A stretch of DNA of 64,000 nucleotides from Seison nebaliae. Lineage: Eukaryota. Positions 5,295-63,944 of this stretch are shown here, in pieces. Both the position numbers and the translations under genes were made by a program. The DNA lies in contig JALJEE010002631.1 in NCBI GenBank assembly GCA_023231475.1, forward strand, positions 1 to 64,000, given 5' to 3'. How positions within the stretch are numbered: the stretch's first letter is position 1; each line of letters starts with the position of its first letter. The notes below the pieces were generated by a model. It was not told the origin of the DNA, did not search any database, and was given only the letters and a program-made list of their open reading frames with translations.

Positions 5295-7430
5295 ATGGCG
5301 AAACAACATTTTGTTCTAGAAACGGATGGAAAGAAGAAATTATCGGAATATCAGAAAGAAAAAGCAAAATATTTTTTTGAAGAAAATTTAGGTTGAATGT
5401 TAAATTAATTCTCCTAAATTACTGATCATTTTCCATTTTTAAGATATTGACGAGAAGGGTTACATCAAATGGAATGATATCGAATTCTATATTATGGTTA
5501 GATCAAAAGAAGAGAATTGTAAATTTATAATAAATTCATTTTGGAATATGTCGTTCGAATGCATAATAAATTCTTTCCATATTCTCTTTTAAAGTTCCAT
5601 ATTACACCTTTGAGTGATGGTGAAGTGAAATTAGAGAAAGCAAGTGCGGCAACAAAAGACCTTTGGACAAAACTACTATCGTTCGACAAATCAAAGAAAT
5701 CGGAAAAAATTTCTTTATCAAAATTTTATGTTTTTACTTGTTTTATCCTTGCAAGTTCGGACTGATGTTTTTCTTTAACTTTTTATACAAAGACTATTTG
5801 GTATTCGATTGTTCAACATATCAAACAATACGATGCTTTACCTTCATTCTTGGAGAAATATATTCGACAAATTTTTCCGTTATTCACAGACGGTTCCCTT
5901 CCATCATTTCCTTTATTCAATTTTCCTTTAGAAAAGGAGACAATTCCTTTCGATATTTTCCGAACTCTATATCAGAACATGGAATTGAATCCTTCGTATT
6001 TTCGTATTGCGATGGCGAAATTAACAGAAGTTAAACATTTTTATTATTTCTTTTTCTAAATATTTAATGTCTAGAACGAAGAGAAACCATTGAGTGTTGA
6101 CAGAATCATTTTATTAACGAAAGAATTGATCGAACATGAAGACCCGACGTCAGATAAACATTTCTTCCTTCCCGGATTCTATCGAGTTATTATGAAGAAG
6201 AATTTAGATCAACCGAAAGATCAGAAAAAAGAAGTTCCTTTAAAAGCAAATCCAAACTCCGATTTTATTTTCCATCCGTTTTTCAATCAACAACCTTCAC
6301 AATTTCCATCTGGTATTGAAGAAGTTGATGAAACTACTACTACTACTGATACAAAATCGGAGAATATAGAACCTGAAAATCGATCAACATCATCAATAGG
6401 GAGAGAGAAATTTAAAGCGACCGCCAATCCGCTCGAAGAAAAACTTAATGATAATCAATTTGTTTCATTCTTCGATTTATTCTCAGGAGATCCATCAAAT
6501 GAAATGGATGATGTGGAAGATGTGCTCATTGAAGAAATGAAGAAGAATCAAAATCGTGCATCACACATACCAAATCCTTCACAAAACATCCCGCCAGCAT
6601 TCATTAATTCCCCATCGTTATTTGATAAACATAAGAGAACTTTCGTGGATTTTGTACGTGCATCGAAAGGAAATATCGTCGCACGATTTATGGAAGAAAT
6701 TCCAATTTCTGATTACGTGAAATTGTTGAAAGATGAGAAAATTGATGGACCGTTACCTCCAAAAGAATCGGTAAATGAGAAGATTTATGGTGAATTAAAA
6801 AAGAAGTTAGATAAGAAGAAATATTCAACTAAATCTCATTCGTCTCATTCGAAACGAATTCCAAGTAAAGTTCTAATTTTCATTGTATATCATTCTGCAA
6901 ATGATTTTCTCTTTAGGAAAAACCGAAAGAAGAAAGTCATACGAAATTTTTAAATTCCAAATCTAGACCTTCAACTAGAAGTTTAGTACTATATTTTTAC
7001 TAAATTTTCCATAAAATCATTTTCAGTTCAAAAAGATCGAAGATCGCCAATTGCAAGAATTTTTGAAGGAAAGACAAATCGAATGGAAAATAATGATAGG
7101 AGAAAGAGTGCTCAACCAACAACGTTTACAAAGCCAAATAGATCGGTAAACTTAAATCGAAACAACAATAATAACAACAGTTTGGATGATATGTCTCCAT
7201 TAAATGAATCGTTTGATGAGAATTCACAAATCTATTATCCGATAAATAAAGAACCAATAACTAGAAAACGGGAAAAGGTAGTTGGAAGTGATAATCATCT
7301 ATTTATATCGGAAGACGATGGTTTGAAAAGTAATGGGAACGAAGGACATCGAAAAATGACTGAAATGTTCGAAAATTATAATGAACTTCCAAAAGATGTT
7401 CAACAATTCCTCTATTCCAGTTACAAATAA
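5295..7430 (+). CDS. EF-hand protein (sarcoplasmic calcium-binding protein/calexcitin-like N-terminus) with long low-complexity C-terminal extension; multi-exon
   Basis: Spliced start MAKQHFVLETDGKKKLSEYQKEKAKYFFEENL|DIDEKGYIKWNDIE gives an EF-hand loop preceded by an SCP-like 'LSEYQKEK..YFF' helix. Later sequence reads 'FRTLYQNMELNPSYFRIAMAKLTE|NEEKPLSVDRIILLTKELIEHEDPTSDKHFFLPG'. Continues into ORFs 6090-6953 and 7083-7430. Confidence 0.65.
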
Positions 7431-7596
7431 CCAAGACGGAAAATAACCATCTTTAAGGAGAACATATTTAAGGGTAAATAAATTAGAAAATATTAAATAA
7501 TAAATTTATTGATACTAAATAATAATATGAAATGGATCTAAACAAATTTTGATGAGAAATACATTTTACCGGATGGAAAGTTTTAATAAATTCAAT

Positions 7597-9185
7597 TTAT
7601 TTCTTAAATGATATCGTTTCATACACATCATTATCTGCGTAAAGATTTCCTGGATTAACGATGACAGATTCGTCTTTATTGAAATGTTTCGTTTTTTGGA
7701 ATCGATCGTTCTCATTAACGATAAATTCGTCGGTTATTGGATAAGTATAATTCTTTGAGTAAAGTGATGGATATCGATTCTTTTTCAATTGAAGTTGTTG
7801 ATAAATGATAAATCCAATTAAAATAATGAGAACAGGAACGATAATCGTTATACAAATAATTACAACGATTGCCAAAATATTCCGATCATTTCTATTATAA
7901 AGCATCGATAATAAATTTGTTTTTGCTGTTTCCTTTTTTTCTTTATTATCTGCTCGAAAGATGGAATAAATTACAAGGAATTTAAAAGAAAATATTAACT
8001 TTTCATATTCCATTTCGATGGATATATTTTGATGGTAGGTAAATATGTTCGTTGTTTTGTTGAAATGATACGAATAGGAATTGGAGTTATTGTTGAAGTT
8101 TCAGTTGAAGTTGTAGTGGTGAGTGGTGAAACGGTGGATGAACTTTTTATTGTGTTATGAAGTTGATTTAGAACGTGATTAATATTTCTATTATCTTCCT
8201 CATTCATGATGGAGAATTCACAAAATTTACCATATTGATGATGTTCACAATGACATTTCCCAGGATCAGTGGAGCAGATTCCTCGACAACGTTTATCATT
8301 CGGTATACACACTTCACAGTACTTCCCTGTAAATGATTTTGGACATCTATGAAAAGTAGAATTATAAGTGCGAAGAGAAAGAAATTGTTCTAACGTGCAA
8401 TGATTAAAGTGTAAACATTGACCACCGTTTTGGCATTTGCATTCAGCTACTTCACACTGTTTACCTTTCCATCCGGATTTACAAACACGCTTTCCCGTTG
8501 CTTCTTCACATTCATAATTGCTCAACAACGATGATCGACAATAATTGGAACATTGTTTACCATAGAAGTAAGTGGAACATCGTCGTTGACCTTTCAACGT
8601 CAAATGGATTTTTGGTAGTTGAACATAATTATAATTATTCAATCGATTATTCGAATTTGCATCGATCCACTTATATTCGTCGATTAATTTCCGATAATTA
8701 CTTTGAAGAAATCGATGATGTGTTCGATATACTTTTATTGAAATTGCAATCGGCGTATTAATCTAAAAAATAATGAAAATTATTAAACTTAAAAGAAAAA
8801 ATTTAACTTTTAATTTTGTTGGGAATTTAATATGGAATGATGATAGTTTCGAAACATTTTCCAACAATGTTCTCTTCTCCCAATAATCACAACTAATTTT
8901 TCTTAACTTGTTCGGGAATAATGCATTGACATTTGTCACACAAAAATCGATTTCAATCCGTTCACATGTTGTTATAGTACGAAAATCCACAAATTGATTC
9001 GTTTCACATTTGGCTGATTCGATCAGTTTGTTGAGATGTTCATTATTCTCTACTTCTAATCTGAAATACCATTTGCATTCCACCTAATCAAATATAAAAA
9101 ATTTAATTAAAAATGTGATAAAGAATCGTCTAACTTGAATTATCCGAATTGCGATGAATAATGAAATTGTGTAAAAGAAAAACAT
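7597..9185 (-). CDS. Delta/Serrate (DSL) family Notch ligand-like protein: signal peptide, MNNL-like region, DSL, EGF repeats, Ser/Thr stalk, TM, cytoplasmic tail
   Basis: Signal peptide MFFFYTISLFIAIRIIQ|V. DSL motif CSTYFYGKQCSNYC...YECEEATGKRVCKSGWKGKQC. EGF CQNGGQC..HCT|CPKSFTGKYC after removing intron 8347-8394. TM segment ILAIVVIICITIIVPVLIILIGFII. Confidence 0.8.
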
Positions 9186-13060: not shown

Positions 13061-13878
13061 TCAATCATTCTGTACTACACCGACTTGTGATGCACGGATG
13101 ACTCTCCCATTCAATTTAAAGCCTATCTTTTCCACTGACAATAGACTTCCCGATTTCTTATCCATCATCTTTATTTGGAAAGTCGCCTCATGTAAATTGG
13201 GATCGAATTCGTCACCAACTTCTGCGTCAATCGCTACTAGACCATGTCGGTTGAAGACTTTGTTTAATGAATTATTTGTCATCGAAAGTCCTTCAAATAA
13301 ATTTCTCAAATGTTTCACTCGATCTTCTTCACTTATATCTGAATTAGTCTCCATTGCATTGGAGGGAATTGTCTTTTAGAAATACAAATAATTCTCTAAT
13401 TGTTTTATATAATAATGAAATTGGAAACTTTAACGGCAATATTGAGAATATCAGAAACATCGACTAGATCTTTACAAAATTTTTGAATTGCAAAATCTTT
13501 TGTGTTTGTTATTTGTCTCTGGAGTCGTTGACGAACATTCTCCGTTTCGGCCAAACTTCTCATATATTTATCCTAAAACTTTCTTTAATAAAATTGAGGA
13601 AATCAATCAAAAACTTTCATAGTTGACACTTCTGCTTCTAAATTATCAACTTTTTCATTCAATTTAGCTATCAGCATTTCACTTTCACTTAAAGCATTTG
13701 GATCCTCTTCTGATTTTGTTGTATTGTTCGCTTTGCTTTCTTTCATTAACATATTGTTGTTGTAGTTTATCGATCTTCTCGCAAAATTCAAAGAACAATT
13801 TTCCAATTTTAGGTGAGATGGATGAAATATTTGGGTGCGACCACAAACTGATAGAACATATCGGAAATTGCGACTCAT
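13061..13878 (-). CDS. GRPEL: Mitochondrial GrpE nucleotide-exchange factor (3 exons)
   Basis: Spliced DKYMRSLAETENVRQRLQRQITNTKDFAIQKFCKDLVDVSDIL, LFEGLSMT, FDPNLHEA and GFKLNGRVIRASQVGV. Confidence 0.92.
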
Positions 13879-16428: not shown

Positions 16429-17889
16429 ATGGAAAATGAACCTTTCTTCTCAAAAACCGAATTGTTCTGGCTCGATACCGGCAACATTATTTCGCCATCA
16501 CGTCTCAAAAAAAATATTACGAGAACAGTAGAAGAAGAAGTTTAATTTTTATAAGAAATTTCAATGAGAAAATATTTTTTCAGGCATTCTCAGCATTAAA
16601 GGAATCATTATTCCAATGGATGATGAAAAACAATCCACGAGACGTTCAAGTTTTTTTTAATTTTAAACTCGAATTTTTCATTTATCCAAAGGAGGAACCG
16701 ATTATCGATTGTTCTCCTGATGTGCCACCAGAAGAAATGACAGACGAAGAAAGAAAAAAAAGGAAAATTTCTGTAAAAATATTTCTCACATCGTATGATA
16801 CGATGACTCTGGAACGTGCGATTGATTTAGGTTCGCTAGTAAAATTTCTTCTAACAATTCAAATTTTTTTATAGTTCTAAAAAAATTAAATATGAAATAT
16901 ATCGATAATTTTATTATAAGTTTACCGTCACCATTTGAATTGAATGAGGATACATTTCTGGAGGAAATCGATTTCCTTCCAACGAGTGAAAAAACGAAAT
17001 TAAATGGTTTCAACAAAAATACGAATAGTCAACCATGTCCAGGATTAGAGAATGTTCCGATGAATAGTGATCTGGAAGCTGACGGTTTAACAGTCGAACA
17101 ATTGCAACCGTTGTGGACGGTAATTGAACGATATATGACGAACGACAAAATACGAAATGGAGGAGTGTGTGATTTGTCATTGAAACTCTTATCAGATCTA
17201 TGTGAATCGCCGTTGACGAATATGATACCTAGTTCCAATAATCTTTCATTGCATTACTGTTGTAACATCGATCCGGATTTGGAGGAATATTGTAAAGAGA
17301 AAGATATTTTCATTTTTACTCATTCCGATCCTCGACAAATTATCAAAGAGAAATCATTGAGAAATTTATTAGAATTAACATTCGATCAAGTTCAGAAGAA
17401 ACGTTTCAGTGCAAATCTTTCAAAGAAACGATCAGATACTCATCAAATGAAAATTTTGGATGAGGAAGATGATGAAGAAGAAGACGAAGAAAGTGAAGAG
17501 AAAGAAGATTTCAATAAATCTACCACCCAAATAAGTTCTTCCATCTTAAAACTATTTATATTTAATTCTTCATTTTTTAAAAAGGTCAAAATGAGAAGAA
17601 ATCGGGAAAGAAGTTGAAGAAACCTGCTAAAATCGATTTTACAAAATTTACTAAATTCTCCTTCAAACCATTATTCGTTATTCGTTATTCATACATTTTG
17701 AAATGTCGTGGAATGATTGAGAAAAAAGGTTCCATTTTTCCATAAAATGTTTATAATTTTCATTTCTAATTCTTTTTTTTTTCAATTTGTAAAGGATATA
17801 TTATGGCCGCGAAACGATATTATCCAAAGAAAGAAACATCATCTCATCATGCGGCATGGGCAATGGACGAACCGATTGCAATTCATTGA
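16429..17889 (+). CDS. GCLM: Glutamate-cysteine ligase modifier subunit; multi-exon
   Basis: LDTGNII, ERKKRKISVKIFL, LQPLWTVIE..MTNDKIRNGGVCDL, LHYCCNIDPDLEEYCKEKDIFIFTHSDP and VIRYSYILKCRGMIEKK|GYIM match the GCLM pattern. Confidence 0.85.
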
Positions 17890-20719: not shown

Positions 20720-23700
20720 ATGGCACGAACGAAACAAACGTTACATTTCTTATGAATTCAACTAAATTATAATATATAATTAGAGCACGGAAGGGGAAGA
20801 AAGGGGCTGGAGTAATTATCAAACAACAAAAAGAACCGGACGATGAAGATAATTCTGATGAAAGCGAACCAATTGAAAAAAAACAACATGAAGTTTATTT
20901 CAATTTACCTACAAACGTTCAGGAAAGTGACGCAATAATAAAAAAATTTATTGTTACTTCAAATTATTGTAATTAAATTATAAAACCTGTTTCATGGAAG
21001 AAAACTATCGACGACGATTGGAGTAATTATGGTGAGTCAGCAACGAAATTCCATTTCCATGACGTAAAAATTCTGAATGATTATCTCCTTTATTGGATCC
21101 ATGATGAGACGAAAAAGAGAACGAATATTTTTCCCAAACTGAAATACCTCTGTGTTCCTAGTCAGGCTTACATAACTCATTACGCATATAACATTTGTGG
21201 TATTGTTGTTGATAACTCGCATAAATTAGTTAAAATTTTTTTAATAACAATTATCAATTGTTGTCTCACTAAATAATGTTAGAGTTTGGAACGATTCCAT
21301 CAAATCTCCATTTCTCATCATGATACTAAATTGAAACATTCGAGTGATTCGACAGCGTTCGCCGTTGAAATTCATCAAACGGAATACGGTCAGAAATCTT
21401 TGTGTAATATTTTGATGAAAATGAATATTGCCAGTTTTCTTATTATTTCTCTATTGGTTATAATTTAAATGTTATCAGTTCAGTCAAATATCAAATCGAA
21501 CGAGATGTTCTATTCATATGATTTAGATTATAAGTTTACACTCAATTTCTCCAATCTTCCCAACAAACATCAATTGTCGAGAAAACAAACAATCGATTTA
21601 GTTTGGTTGGATTGTGAGAAAGATAATTGTCGAGATAAATTGAAAGAACTTCTCGTTGAATTATATTCGATCAAAGTTTTAAAATTGTCAATTTTGAATA
21701 TTCAAAACACTAAAAATATTTAGGGTACTGAAGGGATCATTTTTTATGACGTTAATAAAACATTGTTGACCGATGAACAATTCAAAGAGATTTTAACGAG
21801 TATTGTCAAAGAACATCAGTCAGAAATGGAAAAGAATTTACGAACAAAATATCCGCCGGACAAGTTCCTTTCATTTCATAGTTCCCACAATAATTACGTC
21901 ATCTTAACAGAACATTTACATTAATGGAACAATTATCAGCTTCTCATCTTGTCCAACGATTGATGTTTTGTGGAGAGTTCTTGAACAAATTTCAATCTCA
22001 GAAATGTCTCTTGACAACTAAAGAAGTTTTTCTTCAAATTTCCAATTATTAAAAATTCTCATTTCTTCATCAGAATGTGAAAGAAAAGTTTATGGAATTA
22101 TGTAAAACGATGGACGATAAGATGTATCATTTGAAAAGTGAATTTAATTTATATAAATCAATTTACACATTCGATGAATTGTTGCAAGAATTATATTTCA
22201 GTTATATCTTTCCGTATAATTATTATTCAATTTGAATTTGTCTTATAGAAAGAGTGGAAGAATCTTTAGTTAATTGTAGATTATTAATCTTTCGTTTATG
22301 TGAGATGGTTAGATTCATTCATATCTTTTATAAGAAAAAATTTTCGCATATTTCTAATTTGTAAACATTTCAGGGTGTTTGGCATTACATTAAAGAACCA
22401 TTTAGTCGATCAACACTCAATTTCGATTCACCAGATGCATTGAAATGTCAGAAATTTTCAAATGATTTAGTAATCGTACAAAAAGCCAAGTTCATGATGT
22501 TAATTGAACGGATTAAAGATCTAAAGATAATGGACTGTAATTGGAAGAATGTTTATGGAATCATTTCAAATTTCAAAACCTTCCAAGATGGTGGTGTTAA
22601 CGAAGTTGTTAGATAATTATTTTCTTACGATTTCATTGAGAAATTGTTTGTTAGGGATTGTGGAGTGAATGTTTATTGCGATTAAATATCGTCTCACCAA
22701 CTCCGAGAAAATTAGTGGAATATGTTGAAATTAATGATAAGATTCTCTCGTCGGTGGTTGAAGAAGTATCGGAAAAAAATGATGATTCGGCATTCAATTC
22801 ATTTTATTTACCGAAATCGAAAAAATTTATATTTTCTCCCGTCAATCAAGAAATTGTTAATGATTTATAGCATTTTCAATTTTAACATCGATTTAAATTT
22901 TAATATGGATTTAGGTTGATTATTATATGGGAATAAAAGAAGAAAAATCGTCGAAGAAGATAAGTGGAACGCCAATTTTTTTGGAATACAAACGTGTTTG
23001 GTATCTAACTTTAGCATTGACGAAATTATGGAAAGAAATTACGAATATATTTGTCTTTTCCGCAAATGGTTCACTATTCACAGAGTATTCTTATACGAAT
23101 AATTTTTTATTGTTTTCAGGATTAATTTCTAAAGGTGAAGATTCTGATGAGAAAAGTATTACTAATGTCGAAATAATATATTTGTGTTCTACACACCTCA
23201 TATTTCGAATTGGTTGTATCGATTTCGGTTTGCAAATCAAATGGGATGTCGGCGACATAAAATCATCGATCATTCATTCAGGTTTTACTCATTTCTGATT
23301 AGTAGAAGATTATCTTTGTTCGAAAGATGAACTAATCTTAACATGTCGGACGTTGAATCCGAATCGAACAATGCAAAACTCCGATACTCTTGATGCCAAT
23401 TTCTTACAATATTTCAGTTCAGTTATCGGTGAAATTACGACAATCATTTCGGCACTTTTAAAGGATATGGAATTGGAGGAATATTATAAGGAATTTGGAG
23501 CCGATATAAAATTTAATAACAGTTTCATTATTTAGTCTTTTCGTTTCTAAATTAGTTTTAGGTATTCCATTTCTCACTCATCAGTTTAAGAAGGACATTT
23601 GTCAGAAATGTGGTATCAATTCAGTTTATCATCGAATTTATTTCGTTAGATGATTTATCCAAATTGTTTCTGTTAATAATATCCAATTTTTGAAGAAAAG

Positions 23701-47450: not shown

Positions 47451-48489
47451 ATGGGAACACAAAACTCCAAGGTTATTATCTACTTATTCCATCAACTAAT
47501 TTTTTTGCGTTTGTCCAAAAATTTCAGGATGGCATTACAGGCTATCAATCGGGTGACGATGGTCAAATGAGTTTGAAAAGTTGGATAATAAATTTTAAAT
47601 GTCAAATTATTTTCTTGTACTATCTATTCTAATTTCGATGAAATAGTTCACGATAAAAATGTTAGAATTAATGAAAAGATGTTCGACGATTTGATATTTG
47701 TTAAAGGGATGCATGATTCCGGTATATATCCGATACGCTGGTCGAGGGAAGGATGTGGTTGTGTACGGTTCTTGGAATGACTGGCAAGCACCACATCAAC
47801 TAATCAAAAGTGATGCTATGGTGAAAACGGGAGTGGAGGAATACGGTGTTTTCATTACTTTACCACCTGGACGATATGAATATAAATTCAAAGTTGACGG
47901 TGAATGGAGAACTGAATCATCAGCTGTTAATTTCCTTTCGTCGTATTTAATGTAATTCTTATTTCGTGTTCGAATATATAGGAAGTTATCCAAAATTCAG
48001 TTGGTTCAACAAATAACGTGATTGTTATTAGGAAAACAGATGCGGATTTTTCAAGCGCTCTCGATCATGATGGTGGATCGCGTTCCAGTTTGACTTTGGA
48101 CAATTTACATTTCCGTAATGAGATTCCTTCACGTCGTCAATTGGAAAGTTGGTCAACAGAGAACATGAAAGAAGGACGAAGTAAAGGACCACCAATTCTA
48201 CCGTCACATTTATCTGATGTAATTTTAAATAAGAATATGGTGGAGTCGTGTGATCCATGTCTTTTGCCTAAACCCAATCATGCTTTACTCAAACATCTTT
48301 ATGCTCTATCCATTCGAGTTATTATATTATATCATTTTAAATTAAATTTAATTATATTTAATTTAGAGTGGTGTATTAGTTCTATCATGTTCCTATAGAT
48401 ACAAAGACAAATTCGTTACAACAATCTTCTATAAACCTGTTGCACAAATTAATGAACAACAACAACAACAACAACAAGCGAAGTCTTAA
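47451..48489 (+). CDS. PRKAB: AMP-activated protein kinase beta subunit; multi-exon
   Basis: Myristoylation-type start MGTQNSK. Glycogen-binding domain VVVYGSWNDW...LPPGRYEYKFKVDGEW. ASC domain PPILPSHL..VILNK...CDPCLLPKPNHALLKHLYALSIR...RYKDKFVTTIFYKP. Ends in a short polyQ. Confidence 0.93.
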
Positions 48490-48722: not shown

Positions 48723-50811
48723 TCATTCTTCCAATTCAATGATGATTACACTATCGCTATCTAAAGCATAAAATTGAAGTTTATGATGTTCTTGATCAAG
48801 TGGTAATAAAACCGTTGAATCCTAAAATGAGAATAGTAAAAAATTTAAGTAATAAAGAAAGAAAGGAAACTCTGGAAAATTTCCATTTCAATCCAACATT
48901 CTTTGTTGTCAACAGAGAAATAATTTCTTCGCTTTTGTTCAAGAGAATTGGGACGGAAACATTGAACATTCTCAATAAATATTCATCTTTCTCCAATTTC
49001 TTTCTCTCCGTCCCTAATTTACTTTCTTGGAACTTTTTTAAATAATTCATGAAATATTTTATCATCGTTTGTTTCATTTTGAGGACTAGCATCGTTTCCA
49101 GAAATTTCTTTTTCGTACCTAATGTCATTTGGAATTGTGGAATTTTTAATAGAATGGTAAATTCCAATACTTCGTCGTCTAATGTTCGTAATGATTTGAT
49201 CATTTCCACCAAAGCTTGTTGATCCAATTTATATTGATCGATCAATTCCAACCATCTCGGATGATCATAAAAGAATTTTTCAGCCAACACTTTTTTCGTC
49301 GTACCATCCAATGGCGGTAACGTTTTGCCTCTGGTACTTAACAATAAAATTTCCTTCAAATATCTTCCCATATACGTCGTCAGATAAGTTCGTGCCGCAG
49401 TTGTCTGAAATTGTTTCTCATTGACAAAAGAACCATCAACATTCTCTAACGTTCCGATTCTCGCCGTTATCAAATATGTCGATAATGATTCGTCATTAGT
49501 AATCGGATTATTTTTCAAATGTAAATGTCTGAGATTTTTAATGAATCTCAACGAATTCACACTATGCCAATCAGTTATGTTGTTTGATTTTAAAAATAAT
49601 TCTCTTAATTTCGGAAAAATTATTTCATTCATTTCCACATTGAGTTGGTCGAAGATTTCCGGATAATCTTTCATATATGACGATGACATTCGAATTGATT
49701 GAATATTACAATTCGATAATTTCAAACATTCCAAATTCTGGAACATGTTCAATTTGAGAATTTCATTCCAATCGTTTAATTGTGTTTTCTGCAAATCCAA
49801 CGAATTCAAATGATTGAGAGCGATAATTAATTCATTCAATTTCACTTGTTCAAATAATGGTGACTCGATTAATCGAATGGGATTATGATAAGCGATTAAT
49901 AATTTGATTTTCGGAAATCTCCAAAGAACATGTAACAATTCATGGAAATTGATATTAATCGAACAAAGAATTAATGAGTGTATCGATTCGATTTCATTCA
50001 AATATTTCATATTTCCATCATCATCCGTTTCATAAAGTGTCTCATGCAACAATGGATTACCAGAAATATTCAACAACAATTTCTTACTGGTCAATGTGAG
50101 AATCATATCGAAAATTGTATCCCAATTCCGAATGAAGTTATGAGCAACTTCTAAAGTCTTCAAATTCTCAAATTTATTCAAATTCAATTTACTCAATTGT
50201 AAGAGAACACTTCGACTCGACATATCTAAATTACTTTCCAACATCAATTCCTTCAATTCTCTCCGATTCATTTTCTCCATGTCCTCACATAAACTCTCAC
50301 AATCTTCCGATGAGAATTTATGGAAATCATTCAAATTTAATGCTGACACATTAACGGTTTGAAGATTCCAACAAAACTTCGCCAAACATTTATTGAATTT
50401 CTCCACATTTAACGATTCTCGTTTCTCATTCAAATCATTGAAATCCACGACTAATGCACTCTTATTCATACCCATCTCCTCATTCTGTATCACACTAAAA
50501 TAAACGTTCAATAATGCCACATAAACATTTTTTCCATACACCAAATGTTTCCGTCGAATGAAACTTCCACTTTTTTCAAATCTACACAAAGAAAATTTTT
50601 ATATTCAATTCACTTAATATTCCAACTTTGTTTCGAAATATTTGATACCGTCATGTTCACCAGAATGTTTTCCGTCGCCGTTAAACCAATCGACGCCAAT
50701 CCATTCGCCCTTCAATTTAGGCAGTTGACCTATGAACTTTATCTCTCCAAAAATATTCTTTTCACGATGTTGGACGACATTGCCGATTCTACAACATCTC
50801 AACAAGTCCAT
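48723..50811 (-). CDS. TBCE: Tubulin-specific chaperone E (CAP-Gly + LRR + ubiquitin-like), 3 exons
   Basis: CAP-Gly GEIKFIG...WIGVDW...GKHSGEHDGIKYF, then LRRs, then a C-terminal DQEHHKLQFYALDSDSVIII ubiquitin-like end. Confidence 0.88.
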
Positions 50812-51240: not shown

Positions 51241-51612
51241 TTATCCCCAGGCTTTATTTTGACAATAATGGATAACTAATTGACGATCGGAACCGAAACA
51301 TTCATACAAATTTTCGAGAGTTGTATGTAATGAAGGTGAGAAAGATTGATTAATGTAAAGAAATATATTTCCACCTTCATCAATGTGCAATTGACGACGG
51401 AGAAATGTGACGATATATTCAAATTTCTGTTTACGATCTACGGCCCATTTCCTTTTCTTCAAAACTGGCGCATCTCCAACAGCTTTGAATAGAACTTCGA
51501 TCTTATTCACTTTAGTCGATTTGTTACTCGAAGATTCACTCACAAGTGTCAGTTTCTTCTCTTCTATTTCTTCATTACCATTTGAACTTGTTACATTCTC
51601 TTCTTGATTCAT
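51241..51612 (-). CDS. ATG12: Ubiquitin-like autophagy protein ATG12; intronless
   Basis: KIEVLFKAVGDAPVLKKRKWAV, IFLYINQSFSPS, LYECFGSD and C-terminal AWG. Confidence 0.96.
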   Translation of the reverse strand: MNQEENVTSSNGNEEIEEKKLTLVSESSSNKSTKVNKIEVLFKAVGDAPVLKKRKWAVDRKQKFEYIVTFLRRQLHIDEGGNIFLYINQSFSPSLHTTLENLYECFGSDRQLVIHYCQNKAWG

Positions 51613-51794: not shown

Positions 51795-52241
51795 ATGACA
51801 TATCAACGAAATCCAAATACCTCTTGTTTAACTTGATTTCGCGTTTAAAGTTTCATGATATCTTTCTATTGAAGACAATCAATTCCAAGATAAGGATGAA
51901 CTGGAAAGAAATCTCTCAAATAACATACAAAAATTGAAACATGTCGCTATTCAAATTCACGGAGAATTGGAAGAACAACAAACTTTATTAGAGTCGATGG
52001 TTTCAACATTTTTATTCTCAAAATTTTAAATATTCTTACATTATTTATTAATGAAAAACAACTAAATTTACATGGTTGAATGATATAATAGAATGAAGGA
52101 TTCTCAAAAACTATATTCTCTTTGGGACAATCGGCGAAGAAGTTACTCGATGTCAATACTTATAGTCGATGTTCGAATTGGATATATTTATTTTTTTTCA
52201 TTATTGGCATGTTTCTCTTTGTTTATCTCATTCTCATATAA
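51795..52241 (+). CDS. BET1: BET1-like Qc SNARE (3 exons)
   Basis: Spliced DELERNLSNNIQKLKHVAIQIHGELEEQQTLLESM|NEGFSKTIFSLGQSAKKLLDV...WIYLFFFIIGMFLFVYLILI*: a SNARE helix plus a C-terminal TM. Confidence 0.8.
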
Positions 52242-52279
52242 ACTGCATCAAAATAAATGTATTTCCATTTCAATGATTT

Positions 52280-53420
52280 GTTGAAACTGATTCGGCGTAT
52301 GTGGGTAATTCGATATTATTATCGTTTCTCTCATTTCCAGAAGAATCATTCGAATTCATTTCACTAACAATATTCTAAGGAGAAATTTGATAAAATGAAA
52401 TTATTTAAAATCCATTAAAATTAACCATTAAATTAGTATAATATTTCTGTTGTTGATCTAAATTAGATAATCGATCTCTTAAATAATTAGTTAGACCTCT
52501 CTGCAACTGAAGAAGTTTTCTCACTTTCTCTTCTTTCTTCTCTTCGTTATCTATGTCATTATCATTCAATATGAAAATTACTTTTATTTGATGTCAATTT
52601 CTAACAATATTCTTCAATTTGCAATTGTTCCATTTTCACTTTCTCCAATTTGATTTCATCGTCTCGAAATCGATCTAAATGTATCTGAATATAAATGGAA
52701 TTTATCAAAGAGAAAAAAGAAAAAAAAACTCCAAAATGTCGTTTCTTTTCTTTCGTTATCTTCTCGACTTTTGTATTGATTTGATCCTTCAAAAGAAAGG
52801 ATGAAATAAGAGATGAAAGAAAAGGAAACTTTTTTAAATTTCAATTCATTTAAATTATTCTCCCCATTCTTTATCATCTCTACACAATTTAATAGATCTA
52901 AATTCTCTTTCTTCTTATTCTCCATATCTATTAGTAGAAAATCATAAAAATTTGAGAAAAATTCATCAAACAATCTTTCTCCGTCGAATAAATTAGTTTT
53001 CTAAATTTCAATGAAATTCCATTCAATTCCAAACATTCCCCATTCATCCAATTACAAAGACTTAAAAGCACTTTTAAAATTTTTTTATTTGAACAATTTA
53101 TAAGTAAATGTTAAACTTCGATTTTCCGTACTGAATTCATTCGATCTTAAATGACGTAAATTTCTCAAGTCATTTTCCAATTTCTTCTTATCTGACTGTT
53201 CCACTTGAAGCAATTTGATCAAACTTCTTCCACTTCTGTTTGTCATCATAATTTTTCATATTTACAATATATACGATAGACAAACCTTTTCAAAACTTTC
53301 TTCGGTCCATCTACTTGATCCATATTCTTTTTAGAATGAAATCCAAGATCTTTGGTACAATGGCTTCGGTCTTTCGAGCTTCATTTTCAAACGAAAATTT
53401 ATTGTAAAACTATTCATTTA
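52280..53420 (-). CDS. Multi-exon putative coiled-coil protein, unknown function; boundaries approximate
   Basis: Short E/K/L-rich open stretches (e.g. LIKLLQVEQSDKKKLENDLRNLRHLRSNEF; DMENKKKENLDLLNCVEMIK) separated by GTT..AG introns. Confidence 0.45.
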
Positions 53421-53840: not shown

Positions 53841-56703
53841 TCAATTCTTCTCGAATACTTTCCCATTAATCAAACCATCAACAATTGGCAATGGTTTCGA
53901 GTTGTCACTAATTTCTAATAAAGCAATCATTGGTTCACTCATAGAAGGTAGACCTTCGATTTTACTTTTAAAAAAATATCTAAAAATAAATAAAGTGAAT
54001 ATTTGTGAGAGTGGTGAGAATGAATGAAACCTGTAGTTACCTTTCTTTGGAAGGATTTTTATGAAATCAGATAAATATGGTTTGGAATAGAATGTCATTT
54101 GAGAGACATAAGGAAACTCTTCATTCGGCATATGATATAATACTTTAGCGTCACTCATCAATTGCCGATCTTCCATTTTCTTTGTACTACCCAAACCAGC
54201 ATTTCCAGTGTTCAACGATGAACCAACTGCCGAATCCATATTAACGAATAATTGTGAAGAGATACCGGAATCATGACTCAATTTATGATGAGATCGTGGT
54301 TCAGAATTCATCGATTTATTATTATTGTTGTTATTGTTTGTGAATTGATTAGCGAACATAGATTGTTGTCGATTGTATTTTGGAGTAAATTTTAAATAAT
54401 CTTCATGAGACTCAATGAAATTAGAATTTCCATATTGATTAGTTTTCTCTTTCGTTTCATTCATTAATTCTTCTTCTTCATTATAAATAATTTTCGAATC
54501 ATTCTCATCATTGTGACAGAGAACTTGATCATAATGTTCATTCAGAATATTCTCCGCATCTTGATTTATATCAACTTTCTCTTTATTTTTCTTATTCTTC
54601 TCTTCATCATCTGCTGTCAACATCAAATCATCATTATTCAAAAGAAACGGTGCCATTGATACACCAGCATCTAATTCATGGGAAGACGAATCGTTTTGCA
54701 TTTTAGATATTAAAGTTGTTTCTTTTTTCTCTTCTCCAATCATCGTACTATTGAAGAAATCGTTAGTGAACGATGTTTGCTGATCCAAATGTTCTTCATC
54801 CTCATTCGTTTGTGTCTTCACTTCACTTAATCGATCACTTAAAATTTTCGCGAATAAATTTGGATTAGTTCTCGCTATCCGATAATGATAATCGTTCGAC
54901 TGAAAAATAATTAGAATATTTTTCAGATATTTTTTAACAAATTAATTAACTTCACTTCCTTCAACTTTTTCCTTCTCTTCTTTCAACACATCAGTAATCG
55001 TTGAGGTTACCCATTTTCTGTTAGAAGCGTCACTCGAATAACCGTCAGTTGTATCATCTTTTCTGTAAAAACAAAGAGAATTAATTTCAGAATAAATATT
55101 TTCTGAATTTTTTGAAAATTATTTTTAGTTCAAGTTCCAAAAATTCTCTACTAAACAATCGATAATTGATATAGTTAACGAAATTTTGTGGATCGTTGAG
55201 AACGATGGCACGAGCTTTCGCATTTTGACGGAATGTTTTCGATAAGACGTTCCTTATACATTCTTCGTCCACATCCATTTGCATCTTAAGAAACCTTTTT
55301 ATTTTTTTTCACTTCAACAAAATTTTCACTTTATTATCTATTATGAAATTATGAAATTTGCTTTAGAAGAAAAATAGGAAGATCCATTTGAATTTAAATG
55401 AATTTGGAATTTATTCTTCTTATAGAAACTTCCTTTCATCTTCTACTAGCCAGAGAAAAGTTATGATAAATTAAATTTTTCTTGCCCACATCAGCAACAT
55501 TTCCTTAACTATTCTAATTTCATCAAACAAACGGAGATTAAGGTTCTCGTTCTTCACCAATGGAAAATAATTAGTAAATAAACAACCTCTTCAACTTATT
55601 CAAAAATTTTCGAAAACTTTTGAATAAAAAATAGGAAAGAAAAGAACTAACATGATATTATCTAAATGATCCAGCGAGTCTAATGAAGTGAGATCACTTC
55701 CGATTCGTGAAGTGAAATGTGGATAGAATGACGTCGATAATTTCGCTTGGTCATTTTTCTTATTCATCGAATATCGAAATGCTTCATGATCTGACATGAC
55801 GCCATTGTCCATTGTGTCCAGTTTCTTTTGACGAAGGAAATTGAAATTTATTGGTTTCTGCTTCCGATTCTTATTAGACAATTTCTCCATTAATCGATTC
55901 CCAAATGACGTGCATTCTGTATCAGTCATAACACCATGATCATTAACTAAATGATTCTTTAGAAACATCTTTGTCTTCATTTTATTCTTATGAATTTCCG
56001 GTTTCTTCACATTCTCATTCATTAGGAACTTTTGCGAGAATTTCTCATTGTAAATTTTTAAGAATTCATCTAAAATGTTATCGTTCCAATATGTTATCAA
56101 ATCAATAATGACTTCATTAAAAATATCGTTCGTAAATCGACGATGACGAATATTATCAACGAGTTTATGTTTCGTATCGTTTCTCATCCATTTTCCAACA
56201 TGGAAATTCTTATGAATATTATTTCGATAAATATTTTTTATTAATGATTTCGATTCCGTCGTACATGTTCTCCCACGATATTGCATTAATTTTTTGATTG
56301 AACAAAAAATTGTCAATTCCGAACTTGCACCACATTTTTTTACATAATTCTTAAATTCCTGCCATTTCGATGGATTATTTATTACATCGATAATTAACGA
56401 TAATTTTTCTTTATTTGCTGATCGATTTATAAAACAAATGATATCGATATCATCATTCTCGTTTTCATCAGGAAAGTTCGGTTTGAATTGATTGTCATTA
56501 ATTGTAATGAAACTACAATCACTCATTTCAATATCATCCAACATTTCGCTTGATGCTAAACGTTTACTACAATTCAGTATTTCATTTCTCTCACAATCGG
56601 AATGTACGGGAAGAGATCGAGTGGATTCTATATGAATTGTTTTCGCATTAATTTCCGTCGGATACGAAGGGAAACAACGATCTGATCTTGTAAATTCAAA
56701 CAT
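53841..56703 (-). CDS. AXIN: Axin (RGS, GSK3-binding, beta-catenin-binding, DIX); multi-exon
   Basis: RGS-like SLIIDVINNPSKWQEFKNYVKK. GSK3-binding-like NPNLFAKILSDRLSEV. Beta-catenin-binding DAENILNEHYDQV. DIX LYHMPNEEFPY...LSDFIKILPKKGNYR|YFFK...EISDNSKPLPIVDGLINGKV. Confidence 0.88.
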
Positions 56704-57962: not shown

Positions 57963-60900
57963 TTATCGATACTTCTTACGATGGATCGGTTTGGGAATGG
58001 CGTTTTGCCAGTAATTTGCACTTAGGCCAATTTCGTAATTATTCGAAGCATCCACTAAATGAGCAGGAAGTCGTTTTCCACTATTTTTTTCATCGGAAAA
58101 TTGTTTTTTCTTATTGTCCTTCCCTCCATCCATGTTCGTGTTTATTGCAGTGTTTTTATTCATTGCACCGTTAACACTTACATTTGGGACATTATTTCCA
58201 TCAATACAAGTATCGACAACTCTTTTCGTACTACCGTCATTATCGTTGGGTAAGTTGGCGATGGAGAATGGCATTCCTTTGATTTGTACTGGAGGTTGAT
58301 AAAATGAACCACCAGCATTGGCTTTCCTAAATTTCTTTTCTTCCATCATGTGTGGAGGCTTGATGTGTTTAGCGCGTGTCCCGTTACCAACATAATCCGG
58401 CCAATTCTTCATGTAATGATCGAAGTGACGGTTTGATAAATTTGCTTTATGTCTCGCCATTTCCAATTCATCAATGAACATGATATCTTCATCTGAACCA
58501 CGTTCTGTCCGATGTTTCCCATATTGATCTGGATAAATTTTTGTAGCATTTGAATCACTATCAGGATTAATGAACTTTATATGGTTTACCAAGTTCTTGG
58601 GCAATTCTAAACCTTTAGCAAAGGCAACACGTTGACCATATTCGGTGGCATCGTTTGCCATATCCAGTTTCATTTCTTGCGATTTAATGACCGTTATATC
58701 TTTTTGAGTCGAGTCCTGAACATCTTGACTAATGAAACCGATGGATGATGTCTTCATTTCAGCAAAATGCATTTTATCATTTTGATGGTCATTTGTGGGT
58801 GTTTCCGTTTTATCTTTCTCCGATTGAATATTATTATTTGTTTGACTTACATCAGTGGAGATCTCGTCTGTTTGTGCGGAATTATTCGATACTTTCTCTT
58901 GTTTGTTCGTTGCCTGTTGACTACTAAATGTTTCTTGAGTACTTGGTATAATATCATTGCCAGTATATTTTGGTCGGCCTTCACTTGTTGGTTCGTCGGA
59001 GATTTTGGAAGAAGTAATTTCCGTTGATTCGATTTCCATCAATTCCTTTTTATTCTTTGTTATATGAATTTCAGAAGCTCGATCATGTTTCGGATATTTG
59101 TTGAACGATTGATCGTCACCTTCAGCTTCTCCACCAGCTGTAAAGTCGTCATGATTTTCATTATCATCTTTTTGTATTTCTTCATCAACCGGTTTATCTT
59201 CAACCGATTTATCATCAACTGGTTTCTCATCCATCGATTTATCATCTACCGGTTTATCATTAAAATCATTAGTAACTGGTTCTTCAACAATTTCTTTTTG
59301 TTCCTCGTTTTCGTCAACAAATAAATCACCTTCCTCATCTGATTGCGATAGATTGAGTTCACTAGTAAAAACGTTTCGATTGTCTCTCGATACTTTTCGT
59401 TCTAGTCCAACTCCGTCAGGCTCGTCTTCTAAAGTAAGAGTATTCAGATCGTTATCATCAGGTGCGATCGACAGATTTGTTTGGGTTCGATGATGATGTA
59501 ATTCAATAAGAGGCGAATCAAGATTTCTGTCTTCATCACTGGTAGATTTGATCTAATGAGATATAATGAAATTTTTGAAATTTTTATAAAGCTTAACATA
59601 TTCAGTTGTTTCGTTATCCATGACCGATGCTTTGTTGAAAACGAGTTTAATATTCTAAAACATAAATAAATTAAAGAGAAAAGTGAACTAAAATTTAATT
59701 TTAAAAGAAATCGAACTTCACTATCTACCATTGCGTCGCTATTATTGAAGTGGATAGGAAGAAATTATAGAAGTAAATGTTTTATATACTAACTCGTAAT
59801 CCTAAAAAGGAGAATTTGATTTAATAAGAATTTTATTTAAAAATTAACATCTAGTGTGGAGGCGGATTTTAACTTTCTTGGAATGCTTATCTCAGAATTG
59901 TAATAACTACTGGCGGATGGGAGGAAATTCTGAAATTACATAATTGATCAAATTTATTATTCATATTTCTCTCTGTTCAACTAACTGCAGACATGGGTAT
60001 TGGACTCTACACACGACAAGACAAAGATTAGAATAATTATTAATTATTATTAATATTAACTTGTTGGAATGACGTTATCTAATTCAATTAAAATAATTTA
60101 TAGAAAGCAATTTGATAAAAAATGACTAACATCATGTTGGATAATATTCATTTCTGTCGCATCACGTGATAATATACTGGCGGAACTACGAGTCAAAATC
60201 GATCCGCTTTTTTGAGAAGTTTCAACTTTTTCAAATTTTTTCTCTCCCCCACTGGTTGTCTCTTCTGGTTCTTTATATTTCTTCTGATGTAGATGTTCGC
60301 ACGGACAAGTACAATTTTGGCATGTGCAAAATGTTATGTTTTCTATGGCATCCTCCAATTCCACATCGTTCATGTTTAACAACGTTTGCACATGAGTTTG
60401 AGTTTCTGCGTGACTCTTTCTCATGTCTCGACTAATAAACTCCAAATATTTTCTGAGCCTTTCCCGCTCCGGTAAATGGGATGTTTCTTCAATATTCATT
60501 TCTTTCAATTGTTGTAGTTTCTTTCCAATTTCACATTGACACTCACAATTCTTACAACTACAACCAAGCTTGTTTGTCATTGAAGGAATGTTTTCGGCTG
60601 AACGTTGATCTGATTCTAAAGTTTTAGATTGAAATCGTCCATAATCACTTTCTAAACGTCATTTGAGAAGTATTATTCTTATTAGTTACTTAAAATTTTA
60701 TTCTAACCTACGGGTAATGCTAAAGAATTTGTAAAAAAGAAAGTTTATTGAAAAGAATTTAAAATATTAACAGGGTGATTCGGCTCCCATAACTTTCTGT
60801 GAACTTGGTCTTGTCGGTTCATAAATGTTATTGATAACTTGATTATCTTTTTGTTTTTCCTTTTCATTCTCTTGTTCTGTAAGAATTGGGATAGGAATGA

Positions 60901-62394
60901 ATAAAATATATTTGAATTCTGAAGAACTTGATTTTCGGCTTTGAGGAATCTTGCCAAAACCTTCCAATGTTCCATTTTTGTCATTAAAGAGTTTGCTCAT
61001 TTTATCTCCGTAAATGTTAGTGAAATCAAATGTATCTTTACTCTTCGGTCGTTGTAGATAGACATGATTACCTTTCGAGTTCTTTGTCAATTTAGTTCTG
61101 TTATTAAAGTTTATCATATTTTCCCCAAATTTACAATTACTAACTTACAAGAAATTGGTACATGGAATGTTCTGAAATGAATATTAGAGAAATAGGAAAA
61201 ATAAATTAATTGTTGACGGTGGTCGTTTCACATTGCGTCGTGGAGCACAGTCATAATTTCTTCCGAGATATCTTCTCCATCTTGGAGATAAACTTTTATC
61301 TTTCATCGCTGCTCTGTTAATCATTGAAAGAAGAATTGATTAACAAGAAATTCGAGAATTAAACTCAAATACTTCATGTTTCTTCCATATCTCATATAAG
61401 TTACTAGTATTATCCATGACTCGTTTCCTCCAATCTCCAAAACGTCGATAGGCGGTATAATCGAAGTTCCTTAATTTAGTAGTCTCCCGTTCTAGAAATG
61501 TTCGTTCAAATGCCATCGGATGGGTGCCCAAACGATTTCTACAGAAAGGAAATTTTAATATTTAAAATTCATTTAAACTGTCTCTGGAAGTCTCTCATCA
61601 TTGAGAGTTCATATTGTAAATAAGAATTTCTCATCGGTCTTGAACGAAATCCTTTTGTAGCTGTATGAACTTTAGTGAATCTCCTAAAGAAATGGTCAAA
61701 TTTTCAGTATATTTAAATAATTCATCCTTAACTTATTTGAGTCTACGCTCACCGGGTTATCACAACAAACACAATGGTATCGGACTAGTTGTTTAGTTGT
61801 TCCTCCAATTTGACCATCCTCATTTTGACTAATTGCTTGTTTTTTCTTTAAAAATTTTAAAAAATATTCAAATTATTTAAAAGAAAAATTAAAGAAAAAC
61901 CAAAGCAGATTGTATGAGAGATAATTCATCTTCTATCAATAATTGTAGTTTCGTTATATCGGGTTTATTCATTTTATTTTCCAATTCTCTTTTTAATGTT
62001 AATGCTGATTCTTCCCATTGTCCGGTCTGTTAAACGTTCGTTATTTCAAGAACTTTCCTTAAAATTATTCATAAACTTTTTCTTTTATCTTCTCGCTCAA
62101 TTGATTGAGAATATTTACAGTTTCACGTTCAGGAACTTCGTCTTCTGCTTGCTTCTCGATCATTACTTGTTTCAAATTCTCCAATTCCTTCCAAATGAGT
62201 TGGAGAAAATAATAAATTTGGGATAAACTTCTAATCTCTGATAGACGTTGGATTGCATCTCGGTCACAACTTCTTCCAAAGACGGTTCATCTTTTTTAAA
62301 TTTCTGAAAATGTTTCTGTTCGCCATGGAAAATGTTGGTTAAATAGAAGAAAAAAGAAAGAAGAATCTGCAACTTTGGATGTAGCGGTATCCAT
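57963..62394 (-). CDS. Large multi-exon uncharacterised protein (may be more than one gene), largely disordered, with two CxCxxCxCxC clusters and DKPVD repeats
   Basis: Chain of minus-strand ORFs (62172-62372, 61340-61531, 60767-61117, 60098-60580, 57963-59234) separated by short GT(T/C)..AG introns. No recognised family. Confidence 0.45.
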
Positions 62395-62502
62395 ATTAAG
62401 AAAATGTCTTTAGTAAATTCAAAATGAAAAATTGATGAAAGATTTTTTATTTCAATTTTCTTAATAATCTGAATAGATAGGAAATGAAATCAGAATTCTT
62501 CG

Positions 62503-63408
62503 TTAAATTTTGCATTTAGCGGCATTTAATGAACGTTTATTAACTCTATAAAATTGTATCAAGAAATTGATCGGTACTGAATGAATATCAGCAATTGTAA
62601 AGAAATGTTGATAAGTATGGCGAGATGGAACGGCTAACCCGATTAAATTCCATATATTTGGTTGAGTTTTATACGAACAATAAATTGGTGAGGCCTGATC
62701 ACTATGCTCCACTAATTTGCTATATCCTTTATATTTGAAGCAATGAATTTCGTTCAATCTCGTCAAATTCTTCCCTTCTGAATCTTTCTTACAAGTATAA
62801 AATGTTTGGATTTCGATCGCATAATTATGAGGAACTATCATACTTTTATATCTCGAATCAGTCCATGGTTGTATGAAACATTTATCTACCGTGTTATCTC
62901 TCTCTGGTTTCAAATTTAAACAAACCGGATGTAAATCACTTGTTTCTTTCGGCATGTTCACTAATGGCAATCGACATGGTAAGAAGAGGAAACAAACACC
63001 ACCTAAAGCATTTGTACAAATTCGATCTTGAATAAACCAATCTTTCTTTGGTCGATTTTTGATGAAAACTCGCAAAGTTGCCAAATAGTAACGACTAACA
63101 CATGAAATGGATGTCATGATTAATTGTTCGTGAACGATTGCACCACCACAAATAGTTTTACCTGCAAATTTTATGGTAACATCCCAAGGCCAATCATAAA
63201 TCGGCTGATATTTCTCATCCGTAATTTTGTCTGTGGTTAAAACGGAATTGCTTATTGAACTTTTGCCACAACTCTTCGGAAATGGCCGAAACCATTTAAA
63301 ACTTTTCGATTCTCCATCAACCACAATACAGATGAGAATGACAAATATTAAATATGTTTTCATCGTTTTTATCAATGGAATGCTATGGCGCAAATGTTCG
63401 TTGAACAA
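62503..63408 (-). CDS. Secreted trypsin-like (S1) serine protease homolog, catalytically inactive; intronless
   Basis: Signal peptide MKTYLIFVILICIVVDG. WPWDVTI...ICGGAIVHEQLIMTSISC has TAAHC with His lost. PVCL is present. SDQASPIYC has GDSGGP with Ser lost. WNLIGL follows. Confidence 0.8.
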   Translation of the reverse strand: MFNEHLRHSIPLIKTMKTYLIFVILICIVVDGESKSFKWFRPFPKSCGKSSISNSVLTTDKITDEKYQPIYDWPWDVTIKFAGKTICGGAIVHEQLIMTSISCVSRYYLATLRVFIKNRPKKDWFIQDRICTNALGGVCFLFLPCRLPLVNMPKETSDLHPVCLNLKPERDNTVDKCFIQPWTDSRYKSMIVPHNYAIEIQTFYTCKKDSEGKNLTRLNEIHCFKYKGYSKLVEHSDQASPIYCSYKTQPNIWNLIGLAVPSRHTYQHFFTIADIHSVPINFLIQFYRVNKRSLNAAKCKI

Positions 63409-63500
63409 TGAGAAAAGAACTTGAATAATTGGGGATAGTATTCATTATAAATACATAAACTTTTATGAGTTATTAGAAGTTTGTTGAAATATAAAATTTA

Positions 63501-63944
63501 TTAGAATAAGAAAATAAAAATGTAAAAAAATATGAAAATCAATTGGATATTTGTAGAGGAGAATGTCGTAAGTGAAGAATTGCATAAATTTCTATTACAG
63601 AAACAAATATGTCCACCATTTCTATTCGATTCCCTTTGACAAACACGATTGATACTCATTCTTATGTCGAGATCAGAATCACAACCTCGTTTGATACGAA
63701 ATGAAGGAATGCCTTTGATACCCCTCTCTTTCAATATTTGAACTTCTTCTATCAACATTTTCAAAGGAAGTTTTCTTCATGAAATCTCTTAAAGAAGGAA
63801 AATAAGTTGAACTTGGTTTAAATGCTTGTGCGAATTTAGTGCAGTAATTCATGCAATGTTCAACTGGAACATTATTCGTTCGATTAAATGGATCATTACA
63901 ACCGACGTCATAAAATGAATCACATTTGTAACATTTCATGGGAC
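63501..63944 (-). CDS. Ly6/uPAR three-finger GPI-anchored protein (sleepless/quiver-like), 5' end outside window
   Basis: MKCYKCDSFYDVGCNDPF...CMNYCTK...IKRGC...CFCNRNLCN followed by a hydrophobic GPI signal. Confidence 0.85.

Follow-up and report, generated by a model that had tools for sequence, protein, structure and literature searches.

A strong GTT bias at the predicted 5' splice sites of short introns in a 64,000-nt window of the Seison nebaliae genome

Gene content and the ROCO gene

The DNA studied here is a stretch of 64,000 nucleotides (nt) from Seison nebaliae (assembly GCA_023231475.1, contig JALJEE010002631.1), referred to below as the window, and the subject is the way in which its short introns begin. 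Seison lives epizoically, is placed within Rotifera-Acanthocephala and has compact genes in a genome of about 46 Mb (PMC8351084). The window is AT-rich (26–36% GC) and gene-dense, and an exon of its AMPK-beta gene is a 100% match to the Seison nebaliae protein SNEBB_002058. A first-pass annotation had reported that short introns in this DNA almost always start with GTT. All intron junctions discussed here are predicted from genomic sequence, and on these predictions 99 of 105 introns in 14 intron-bearing genes start with GTT. The ROCO gene contributes the following features:

20720..31661, plus strand: ROCO gene with MBT, LRR, ROC, COR and TIR domains; 36 predicted introns of 40–66 nt, 35 of them GTT (Pfam, homology and donor-blind parse)
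20740, 20953, 21229, 21434, 21676, 21864, 22026, 22201, 22308, 22608, 22856, 23069, 23522, 23645, 23805, 24765, 25084, 25264, plus strand: GTT donors, first part
25523, 25975, 26054, 26349, 27235, 27754, 29312, 29531, 30002, 30203, 30372, 30678, 30763, 31003, 31090, 31255, 31461, plus strand: GTT donors, second part
23228-23282, plus strand: ambiguous intron site, where the parser placement at 23252 is judged wrong
20740..20783, plus strand: first intron, GTT, the sole frame-compatible GT-AG pair there
25264..25325, plus strand: GTT intron in an MBT repeat; the flanking exons tile profile positions 1–32 and 34–68 around a split codon
27754..27803, plus strand: GTT intron in the ROC P-loop, with a homology score of 125 compared to 71 for the next-best choice (a GTG donor)

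The 23 ROCO donor positions listed in the first-pass annotation all read GTT in the sequence, and 21 of them were also picked by a parser that does not score the donor (see below); the one placed near 22605 moved to the adjacent GTT at 22608, and 23282 is ambiguous. The parsed GTT intron at 25975 is possibly wrong. Every frame-compatible GT-AG pair was also scored against ROCO homologues for the 17 of 38 introns that qualified (at least 5 aligned homologues), and a GTT donor was best in 15 of these 17. Where a GTT donor competed with a non-GTT donor it won in 7 of 8 cases, the single loss being a near tie at 30002/30011.

Splicing at 20740 yields an N-terminal decapeptide resembling the histone H3 tail (20720-20810, plus strand), and the homologues P0029, P0130 and P0275 begin alike. 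The protein also carries an MBT repeat, a methyl-lysine reader (Pfam), and judging from these sequence features it may be able to read its own H3-tail mimic.

Predominance of GTT donors

Gene structures were obtained with a parser that relies on a codon model, requires introns to run from GT or GC to AG and has no term for position +3 or beyond (donor-blind). The first pass covered 16 regions, two of which (g1 and g44, scores −7.7 and 4.2) were dropped prior to counting, and gave GTT in 100 of 110 introns. The second pass, which produced the 99 of 105 quoted above, added a learned length and acceptor model and again left the donor unscored. Donor composition was measured on the 88 introns with a donor posterior of at least 0.9, the 17 of 105 below 0.9 being left out. 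These 88 best-placed introns have a median length of 50 nt and comprise 83 GTT (about 94%), 2 GTC, 2 GTA and 1 GTG. GTT accounts for 40 of 40 on the plus strand, 43 of 48 on the minus strand and 53 of 58 when ROCO is excluded.

Uracil at +3 is near-universal in this set, and the excess is not matched by any background that we compared. T follows GT with a frequency of 0.449/0.425 window-wide, in 53 of 100 cases inside introns and in 414 of 1084 in exons; even against a null probability of 0.6, 83 of 88 is significant with p = 1.7e-13 by the binomial test. Adenine at +3 (2 of 88, compared to 32.5% A in intron interiors, p = 1e-12) and cytosine (2 of 88, compared to 12.9%, p = 0.001) are both depleted. 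Few features of animal donors are as stable as a purine at +3; only 3 of the 88 have one, and the set departs from the donor consensus AG/GTRAGT.

One explanation that has to be considered is that T-rich DNA combined with the selection of sites produces a false GTT bias. The junctions are predictions, T after background GT reaches 43–53%, and some parsed introns are wrong (41924 and 23252, possibly also 8394 and 25975). To address the choice of sites, position +3 was overwritten at the called donors and the sequence parsed again. Planted GTA donors were recovered in 106 of 109 cases and planted GTG donors in 92 of 109. When donors were planted in canonical proportions, 15 of 330 being GTT, the parser called GTT in 27 of 324. 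These recoveries show that the choice of site follows position and not the T. The GT-AG ends are themselves an assumption of the parser, and AMPK-beta and the homology comparisons served as independent checks. In the NCBI gene model of AMPK-beta, whose RNA basis is uncertain, 5 of 5 introns are GTT, the same as in the blind parse, and all 5 allow a GT-AG placement with the ends unrestricted. Homology, this model and the Pfam tiling all concur, and a homology mapper that is likewise blind to +3 yields GTA donors in other rotifer loci. A composition artefact was discarded as the source of the bias on these controls and checks, and we give it next to no credence. Given the predicted junctions, the GTT start of short introns in the window is confirmed, and the suspicion that +3 T simply equals intronic T content fails.

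A model-free test of distances gives weak support for GTT donors. On the sense strand, the ratio for GTT followed at 40–56 nt by a T-rich YAG was 1.51, compared to 0.65 for GTA, 0.82 for GTG and 0.78 for GTC; the antisense ratio for GTT was 1.07, but noise alone took GTC and GCT to 1.5 on that strand.

Other positions of the donor, the exon end and the acceptor

According to the first-pass annotation the short introns had no consensus at +4 to +6. This is borne out at +4 and +6, which are flat and at background among the 88 introns, but not at +5, where G is enriched (19 of 88, compared to 6.8% in intron interiors, p = 6e-6) and T is depleted (p = 1.5e-7). GTTTG donors number 4 of 88, and a strict +4 U, +5 G, +6 U pattern is not seen. 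On the exon side, A is in excess at −2 (55 of 88, with 34.2 expected) and at −1 (52 of 88, with 32.7 expected), while G at −1 (17 of 88, with 15.8 expected) is not, so that exons end in A rather than in AG; this swap of the −1 G for A was overlooked in the earlier annotation. Bases −1 and +5 trade off in the 83 GTT donors: of the 49 that have −1 A, 6 carry G at +5, compared to 13 of the 34 that lack it (p = 0.008).

These positions bear on the possibility that canonical U1 small nuclear RNA (snRNA) pairs in a register shifted by one base, which would match −1 A, +1 G and +3 U and mismatch +2. The three matched bases are the three main features of these donors, and the shifted register separates real donors from decoys with an area under the curve (AUC) of 0.66, compared to 0.585 for the normal register. 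However, it also requires +4 to be a purine and +6 to be G, and of the 49 GTT donors that have −1 A these are present in 17 (background about 39%) and 1, respectively; the A-rich −2 position suits the normal register. We rejected the shifted register as the main mode for its failure at +4 and +6 and regard it as rather improbable. Shifted-register 5' splice sites, reportedly described by Roca and Krainer in 2009, share the −1 A and the GTT start with the Seison donors and differ in needing the +4 purine and +6 G, both of which lack signal in Seison.

Acceptors of the 88 introns are TAG (56), CAG (19), AAG (10) and GAG (3), that is, YAG in 75 of 88, and no positional peak or consensus of a branch point was found among them. 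The exons that follow these introns begin with A in 50 of 88 cases (33.1 expected) without an excess of G, so that the junctions read A/A and not G/G. U12-type minor introns have an extended RTATCCTT donor; there is no such donor among the 105 predicted introns, and a U12 class was ruled out for the introns of the window.

Other intron-bearing genes

5295..7430, plus strand: unnamed gene; 6 predicted introns with donors 5392, 5553, 5730, 6030, 6870 and 6981, all GTT (donor-blind parse)
7597..9185, minus strand: Delta-like gene; GTT donors 9134, 8807 and 7999 (DSL domain by Pfam, donor-blind parse)
8394, minus strand: doubtful GTT donor of the Delta-like gene; posterior 0.61, and the frame reads through too
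13061..13878, minus strand: GrpE; GTT donors 13614 and 13428 (Pfam and donor-blind parse)
16429..17630, plus strand: gene called GCLM in the first-pass annotation, without Pfam match; donors 16540, 16650, 16831 and 17535, all GTT
31831..32911, minus strand: gene with a weak Skp1 match; GTT donors 32260 and 32022
41865..42726, minus strand: O-methyltransferase; GTT donors 42603, 42265 and 42082
44481..46016, minus strand: TPD52-family gene; GTT donors 45814, 45660 and 45465 (short introns) and 45324 (105 nt), the middle part being ambiguous
45975 or 45979, minus strand: donor of the first TPD52 intron (107–111 nt, within 45869-45979), GTA on either reading and possibly GTAAGT
44637 or 44643, minus strand: donor of the last TPD52 intron, likely GTC
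47451..48489, plus strand: AMPK-beta (NCBI model P0322); introns 47472-47527, 47580-47646, 47661-47706, 47926-47981 and 48318-48366, all GTT
48723..50811, minus strand: LRR gene called TBCE in the first-pass annotation; GTT donors 50626 and 48870
52188..53323, minus strand: unnamed gene; 8 predicted introns with donors 53285, 53116, 52971, 52829, 52729, 52605, 52425 and 52287, all GTT
53841..56703, minus strand: Axin-like (DIX) gene; GTT donors 55651, 55532, 55429, 55156, 54950 and 54030
55329, minus strand: GTG call in a weakly constrained middle part of the Axin-like gene
57963..62394, minus strand: unnamed gene; 19 predicted introns, of which 17 are GTT, with GTC at 61217 and a GTA call at 59789
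63501..63939, minus strand: Ly6/quiver-like gene; GTT donor 63812

The claim that GTT donors extend across a series of named genes holds for Delta, GrpE, O-methyltransferase, AMPK-beta, Axin and Ly6, whose names, like that of ROCO, are backed by Pfam. The genes named GCLM and TBCE also have GTT donors but no family-specific Pfam match, and no BET1 was found among the pieces of the window scanned with Pfam, the gene at 44.5–46 kb belonging to the TPD52 family instead. Three of the five non-GTT calls among the 88 best-placed introns are weak. A GTC call at 41924 in the O-methyltransferase was rejected as an intron, the methyltransferase domain reading through it, the GTA call at 59789 competes with a GTT at 59793 that was the choice of the first parser pass, and the GTG call at 55329 falls in the weakly constrained part of the Axin-like gene.

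The TPD52-family gene contains in addition a candidate 18-nt frame-preserving microexon (45202-45219, minus strand), not picked by the parser and followed by GTAAGT at 45201. A candidate intron of about 78 nt, with GTA after a G, lies in the 5' untranslated region ahead of the Axin-like gene (56740-56817, minus strand). Introns that are longer, or that are spliced alternatively, may be the ones with canonical donors.

Introns of bdelloid-like relatives

An alignment of rotifer ROCO proteins led to 11 metagenome loci (L001-L011), most of which best match Rotaria or Adineta proteins at 52–81% identity; we call these bdelloid-like on their best protein matches alone. Homology mapping blind to +3 placed 76 introns in 9 loci (L007 and L011, each a single tblastn block, were unmapped). 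The comparison set of 52 introns comes from L001-L005, L008 and L009 and omits L006 (20 rows, the same introns as L001) and L010 (4 rows, not bdelloid-like).

The donors of these 52 introns are GTA in 37, GTT in 13, GTC in 1 and GTG in 1, many of them being the same positions in different species; in L001 alone GTT accounts for 3 of 19 (p = 4e-12 compared to Seison). The two sets are alike in intron length (about 50 nt; median 53 nt in the relatives), in T-rich interiors (51% T in the relatives), in possessing a GTT class and in frequent −1 A (24 of 52). They differ in the dominance of GTA in the bdelloid-like loci and in the company of the GTT donors, which there nearly always have +5 G (11 of 13, compared to 19 of 83 in Seison, p = 3e-5). 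Because the bdelloid-like introns are equally short and AT-rich yet use GTA, shortness and AT-richness alone cannot make the GTT pattern. The +5 G on their GTT donors indicates that +3 U is compensated there, without such a need in Seison. On these sequence comparisons the switch to GTT looks specific to the Seison side, and the minority class of GTT donors compensated by +5 G in the relatives could be seen as a visible intermediate. Two donor classes, GTA and GTTTG, can be told apart among the bdelloid-like introns (L001 4626-11343; L002-L005), and two GTTTG introns occupy the same ROCO positions in five of the loci.

Positions of ROCO introns are mostly unshared between Seison and the bdelloid-like loci. 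In well-aligned parts, Seison introns such as those at 25264, 27754, 30203 and 30763 do not lie at bdelloid-like positions, as would be expected if a single mobile element (an introner) had spread new introns in one burst and left GTT as its mark, with the spliceosome unaltered. On the other hand, the 20 all-against-all matches between introns that were listed span 12–20 nt only, there is no pattern or excess of target-site duplications, GTT occurs in nearly every gene, and the Seison ROCO intron at 25523 is possibly at the same position as a GTA intron in L001. The AMPK-beta introns at 47926 and 48318 and the Delta intron at 9134 are at what we take to be vertebrate intron positions. The introner origin, having support from neither sequence similarity nor duplications, was discarded, and we consider it very improbable.

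Mechanism of donor recognition

The first-pass annotation had suggested either variant U1/U6 snRNAs or a length-driven, protein-based recognition of the donor. Recognition by length alone, blind to sequence, would leave +3 at background, with about one third A, compared to the 2 of 88 observed; it was discarded, since A and C are both excluded. The notion of an altered recognition code is upheld by the same scarcity of GTA against 32.5% A in intron interiors and by the bdelloid-like loci, which keep GTA with introns of equal size and composition. A is nearly absent at +3, and therefore something selects U rather than recognition being merely relaxed.

The likeliest cause, to which we would assign a little less than an even chance, is a change in the 5' arm of U1 that places an A opposite +3. 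Position 6 of U1, normally a pseudouridine, would have become A and would face intron +3, gaining a pair to U and mismatching A, G and C; exclusion of both A and C, leaving U, is what is expected of a Watson–Crick A partner. The introns themselves would be of the usual U2 type with GT-AG ends, and their short length and AT content would serve to define them as units. The A's of the exon end would pair with loop 1 of U5, or with U1 if its C9 had become U, and the minority of donors with +5 G would lean on the U6 ACAGA box where the exon end is not A. A canonical U1 may persist next to the variant and serve longer introns. Scored by pairing against 1213 decoy GTs, canonical U1 gives an AUC of 0.585, the 6A variant 0.76 and the 6A plus 9U variant 0.81, although the latter two values are circular, the variants having been picked from the logo. 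The trade-off between −1 A and +5 G resembles the −1/+5 seesaw described in PMC11732430, with A replacing G.

Several points weigh against a U1 change. The joint −2A−1A state shows no trade-off with +5 G (6 of 35 compared to 13 of 48, p = 0.43), and the GTA of the first TPD52 intron and the GTAAGT after the candidate microexon make canonical-type donors seem usable. The total pairing of the donors is short, with a mean of 6.2–6.7 of 11, whereas Entamoeba keeps +4 to +6. The junctions are themselves predictions, and neither an snRNA nor any other Rfam family was matched inside the window. In the tunicate Fritillaria, 95% of introns have left GT-AG with the U1 5' end, U5 loop 1 and U6 ACAGAGA unaltered (PMC13326754), which means that animals can rewire their donors without a change in U1.

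The Fritillaria case leads to an alternative in which the snRNAs are canonical and +3 U is read by a diverged protein (U1C, LUC7, Prp8 or SNRNP27K) or through changed snRNA modification, with loop 1 of U5 gripping the A-rich end of the exon and intron definition depending mostly on length. We regard this as less likely than the U1 change, but as the strongest of its rivals. The unaltered snRNAs of Fritillaria carry new modifications (PMC13326754), and the U1C of Entamoeba is likewise diverged (bioRxiv 10.1101/2022.06.08.495308). GTA donors seem to remain on longer introns, and the exon-end A together with the −1A/+5G trade-off fits the U5 and U6 classes of donors without a change in U1. However, the bdelloid-like loci retain GTA at equal intron size. 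Nor are we aware of any way in which a protein could shut out A at +3, the base there that pairs best with canonical U1.

It is also conceivable that U1 is canonical or weak and that U6 does the filtering of +3. This would work through a G-U wobble with the normal ACAGA box, the G of which faces intron +3 (bioRxiv 10.1101/2022.06.08.495308), or through an altered U6 that places A opposite +3. GUUUGU can lengthen the pairing to U6 ACAGA (10.1101/2022.06.08.495308), and the bdelloid-like GTT class is mostly GTTTG. But a G partner should tolerate C, and GTC is rare (2 of 88); pairing of an unchanged U6 G with +3 is disfavoured because C, its best-pairing base, is also excluded. Moreover, +4 and +6 lack a U6-type signal, and ACAGA is kept in both Entamoeba (10.1101/2022.06.08.495308) and Fritillaria (PMC13326754). 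We give little credence to a filter at U6.

Comparison with known systems

The closest parallel to the proposed U1 change is found in Entamoeba, where donors read GUUUGU(U), 96.9–98.5% of them GUUUGN, and U1 has co-evolved to AACAAAC; Mastigamoeba is a further precedent, and compensatory snRNA change is reported there for no more than two lineages, both amoebae (Roy and Bowser, bioRxiv 10.1101/2022.06.08.495308). Entamoeba and Seison share a near-universal U at +3 on GT-AG introns (83 of 88 GTT in Seison). Entamoeba, a protist, has few introns and a strict consensus at +4 to +7. Seison is an animal dense in introns (105 predicted in 14 genes); its donors lack signal at +4 and +6 and show a weak +5 G, and its exon ends are A-rich.

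A second comparison is with the division of 5' splice sites into a U5 class, AG//GUNNN, and a U6 class, NN//GURAG (Parker, Fica and Simpson, PMC11732430). The Seison donors have in common with it an exon-side signal, little intron-side signal and the −1/+5 trade-off, and they differ in that the strong −1 base is A and not G and that +3 is fixed as U instead of being free or a purine.

Fritillaria borealis is the one animal case of changed donors that our search turned up, and it has kept its snRNA arms (PMC13326754). It resembles Seison as an animal lineage in which the donor code has changed, genome-wide in Fritillaria and in one window as far as Seison is known here. The two are unlike in that Fritillaria leaves GT-AG with canonical snRNA arms, whereas Seison keeps GT-AG and changes +3. 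Fritillaria introns are reportedly transposon-derived.

We found no account of dominant GTT donors in Seison or in any animal in a search that lay outside most subscription papers and the logos in supplements of large surveys. In the parts of the Seison genome paper drawn on (PMC8351084), the lone mention of a splice site concerns homeobox annotation, and the words snRNP, LUC7, METTL16 and intron have 0 matches in the searched text of its two supplements; PMC10125929 and PMC10639083 are, in the corresponding parts, silent on GTT donors.

We speculate, as a tentative possibility, that Seison is an intron-rich animal whose major 5' splice site has been recoded to AA/GUU through a compensatory U1 (A at position 6, perhaps U at position 9), with thousands of old introns converted and possibly a canonical U1 kept as a second form for GTAAGT introns that are long or exon-defined. 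An intron-dense animal that excludes GTA makes the co-evolution of U1 and donor directly testable in a small public genome, and annotation of the Seison lineage will go wrong where its donor models were trained on other animals.

Intronless genes and repeats

The window also holds genes with no introns. One of them, at 33205-40650 (minus strand, 2481 aa), is an acetyl-CoA-carboxylase-like gene, a name that we assume from its motifs, and its neighbours hold dozens of introns. Further intronless open reading frames lie at 11057-12373 (minus strand), 43169-44083 (plus strand), 51241-51612 (minus strand) and 62503-63363 (minus strand); the first of these is an alpha/beta-hydrolase, presumably similar to homoserine/serine O-acyltransferases (MetX-like). 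Positions 780-1210 consist of about 3 tandem copies of a unit of about 120 nt, which also appears as a repeated peptide within an open reading frame at 751-1173 (minus strand).

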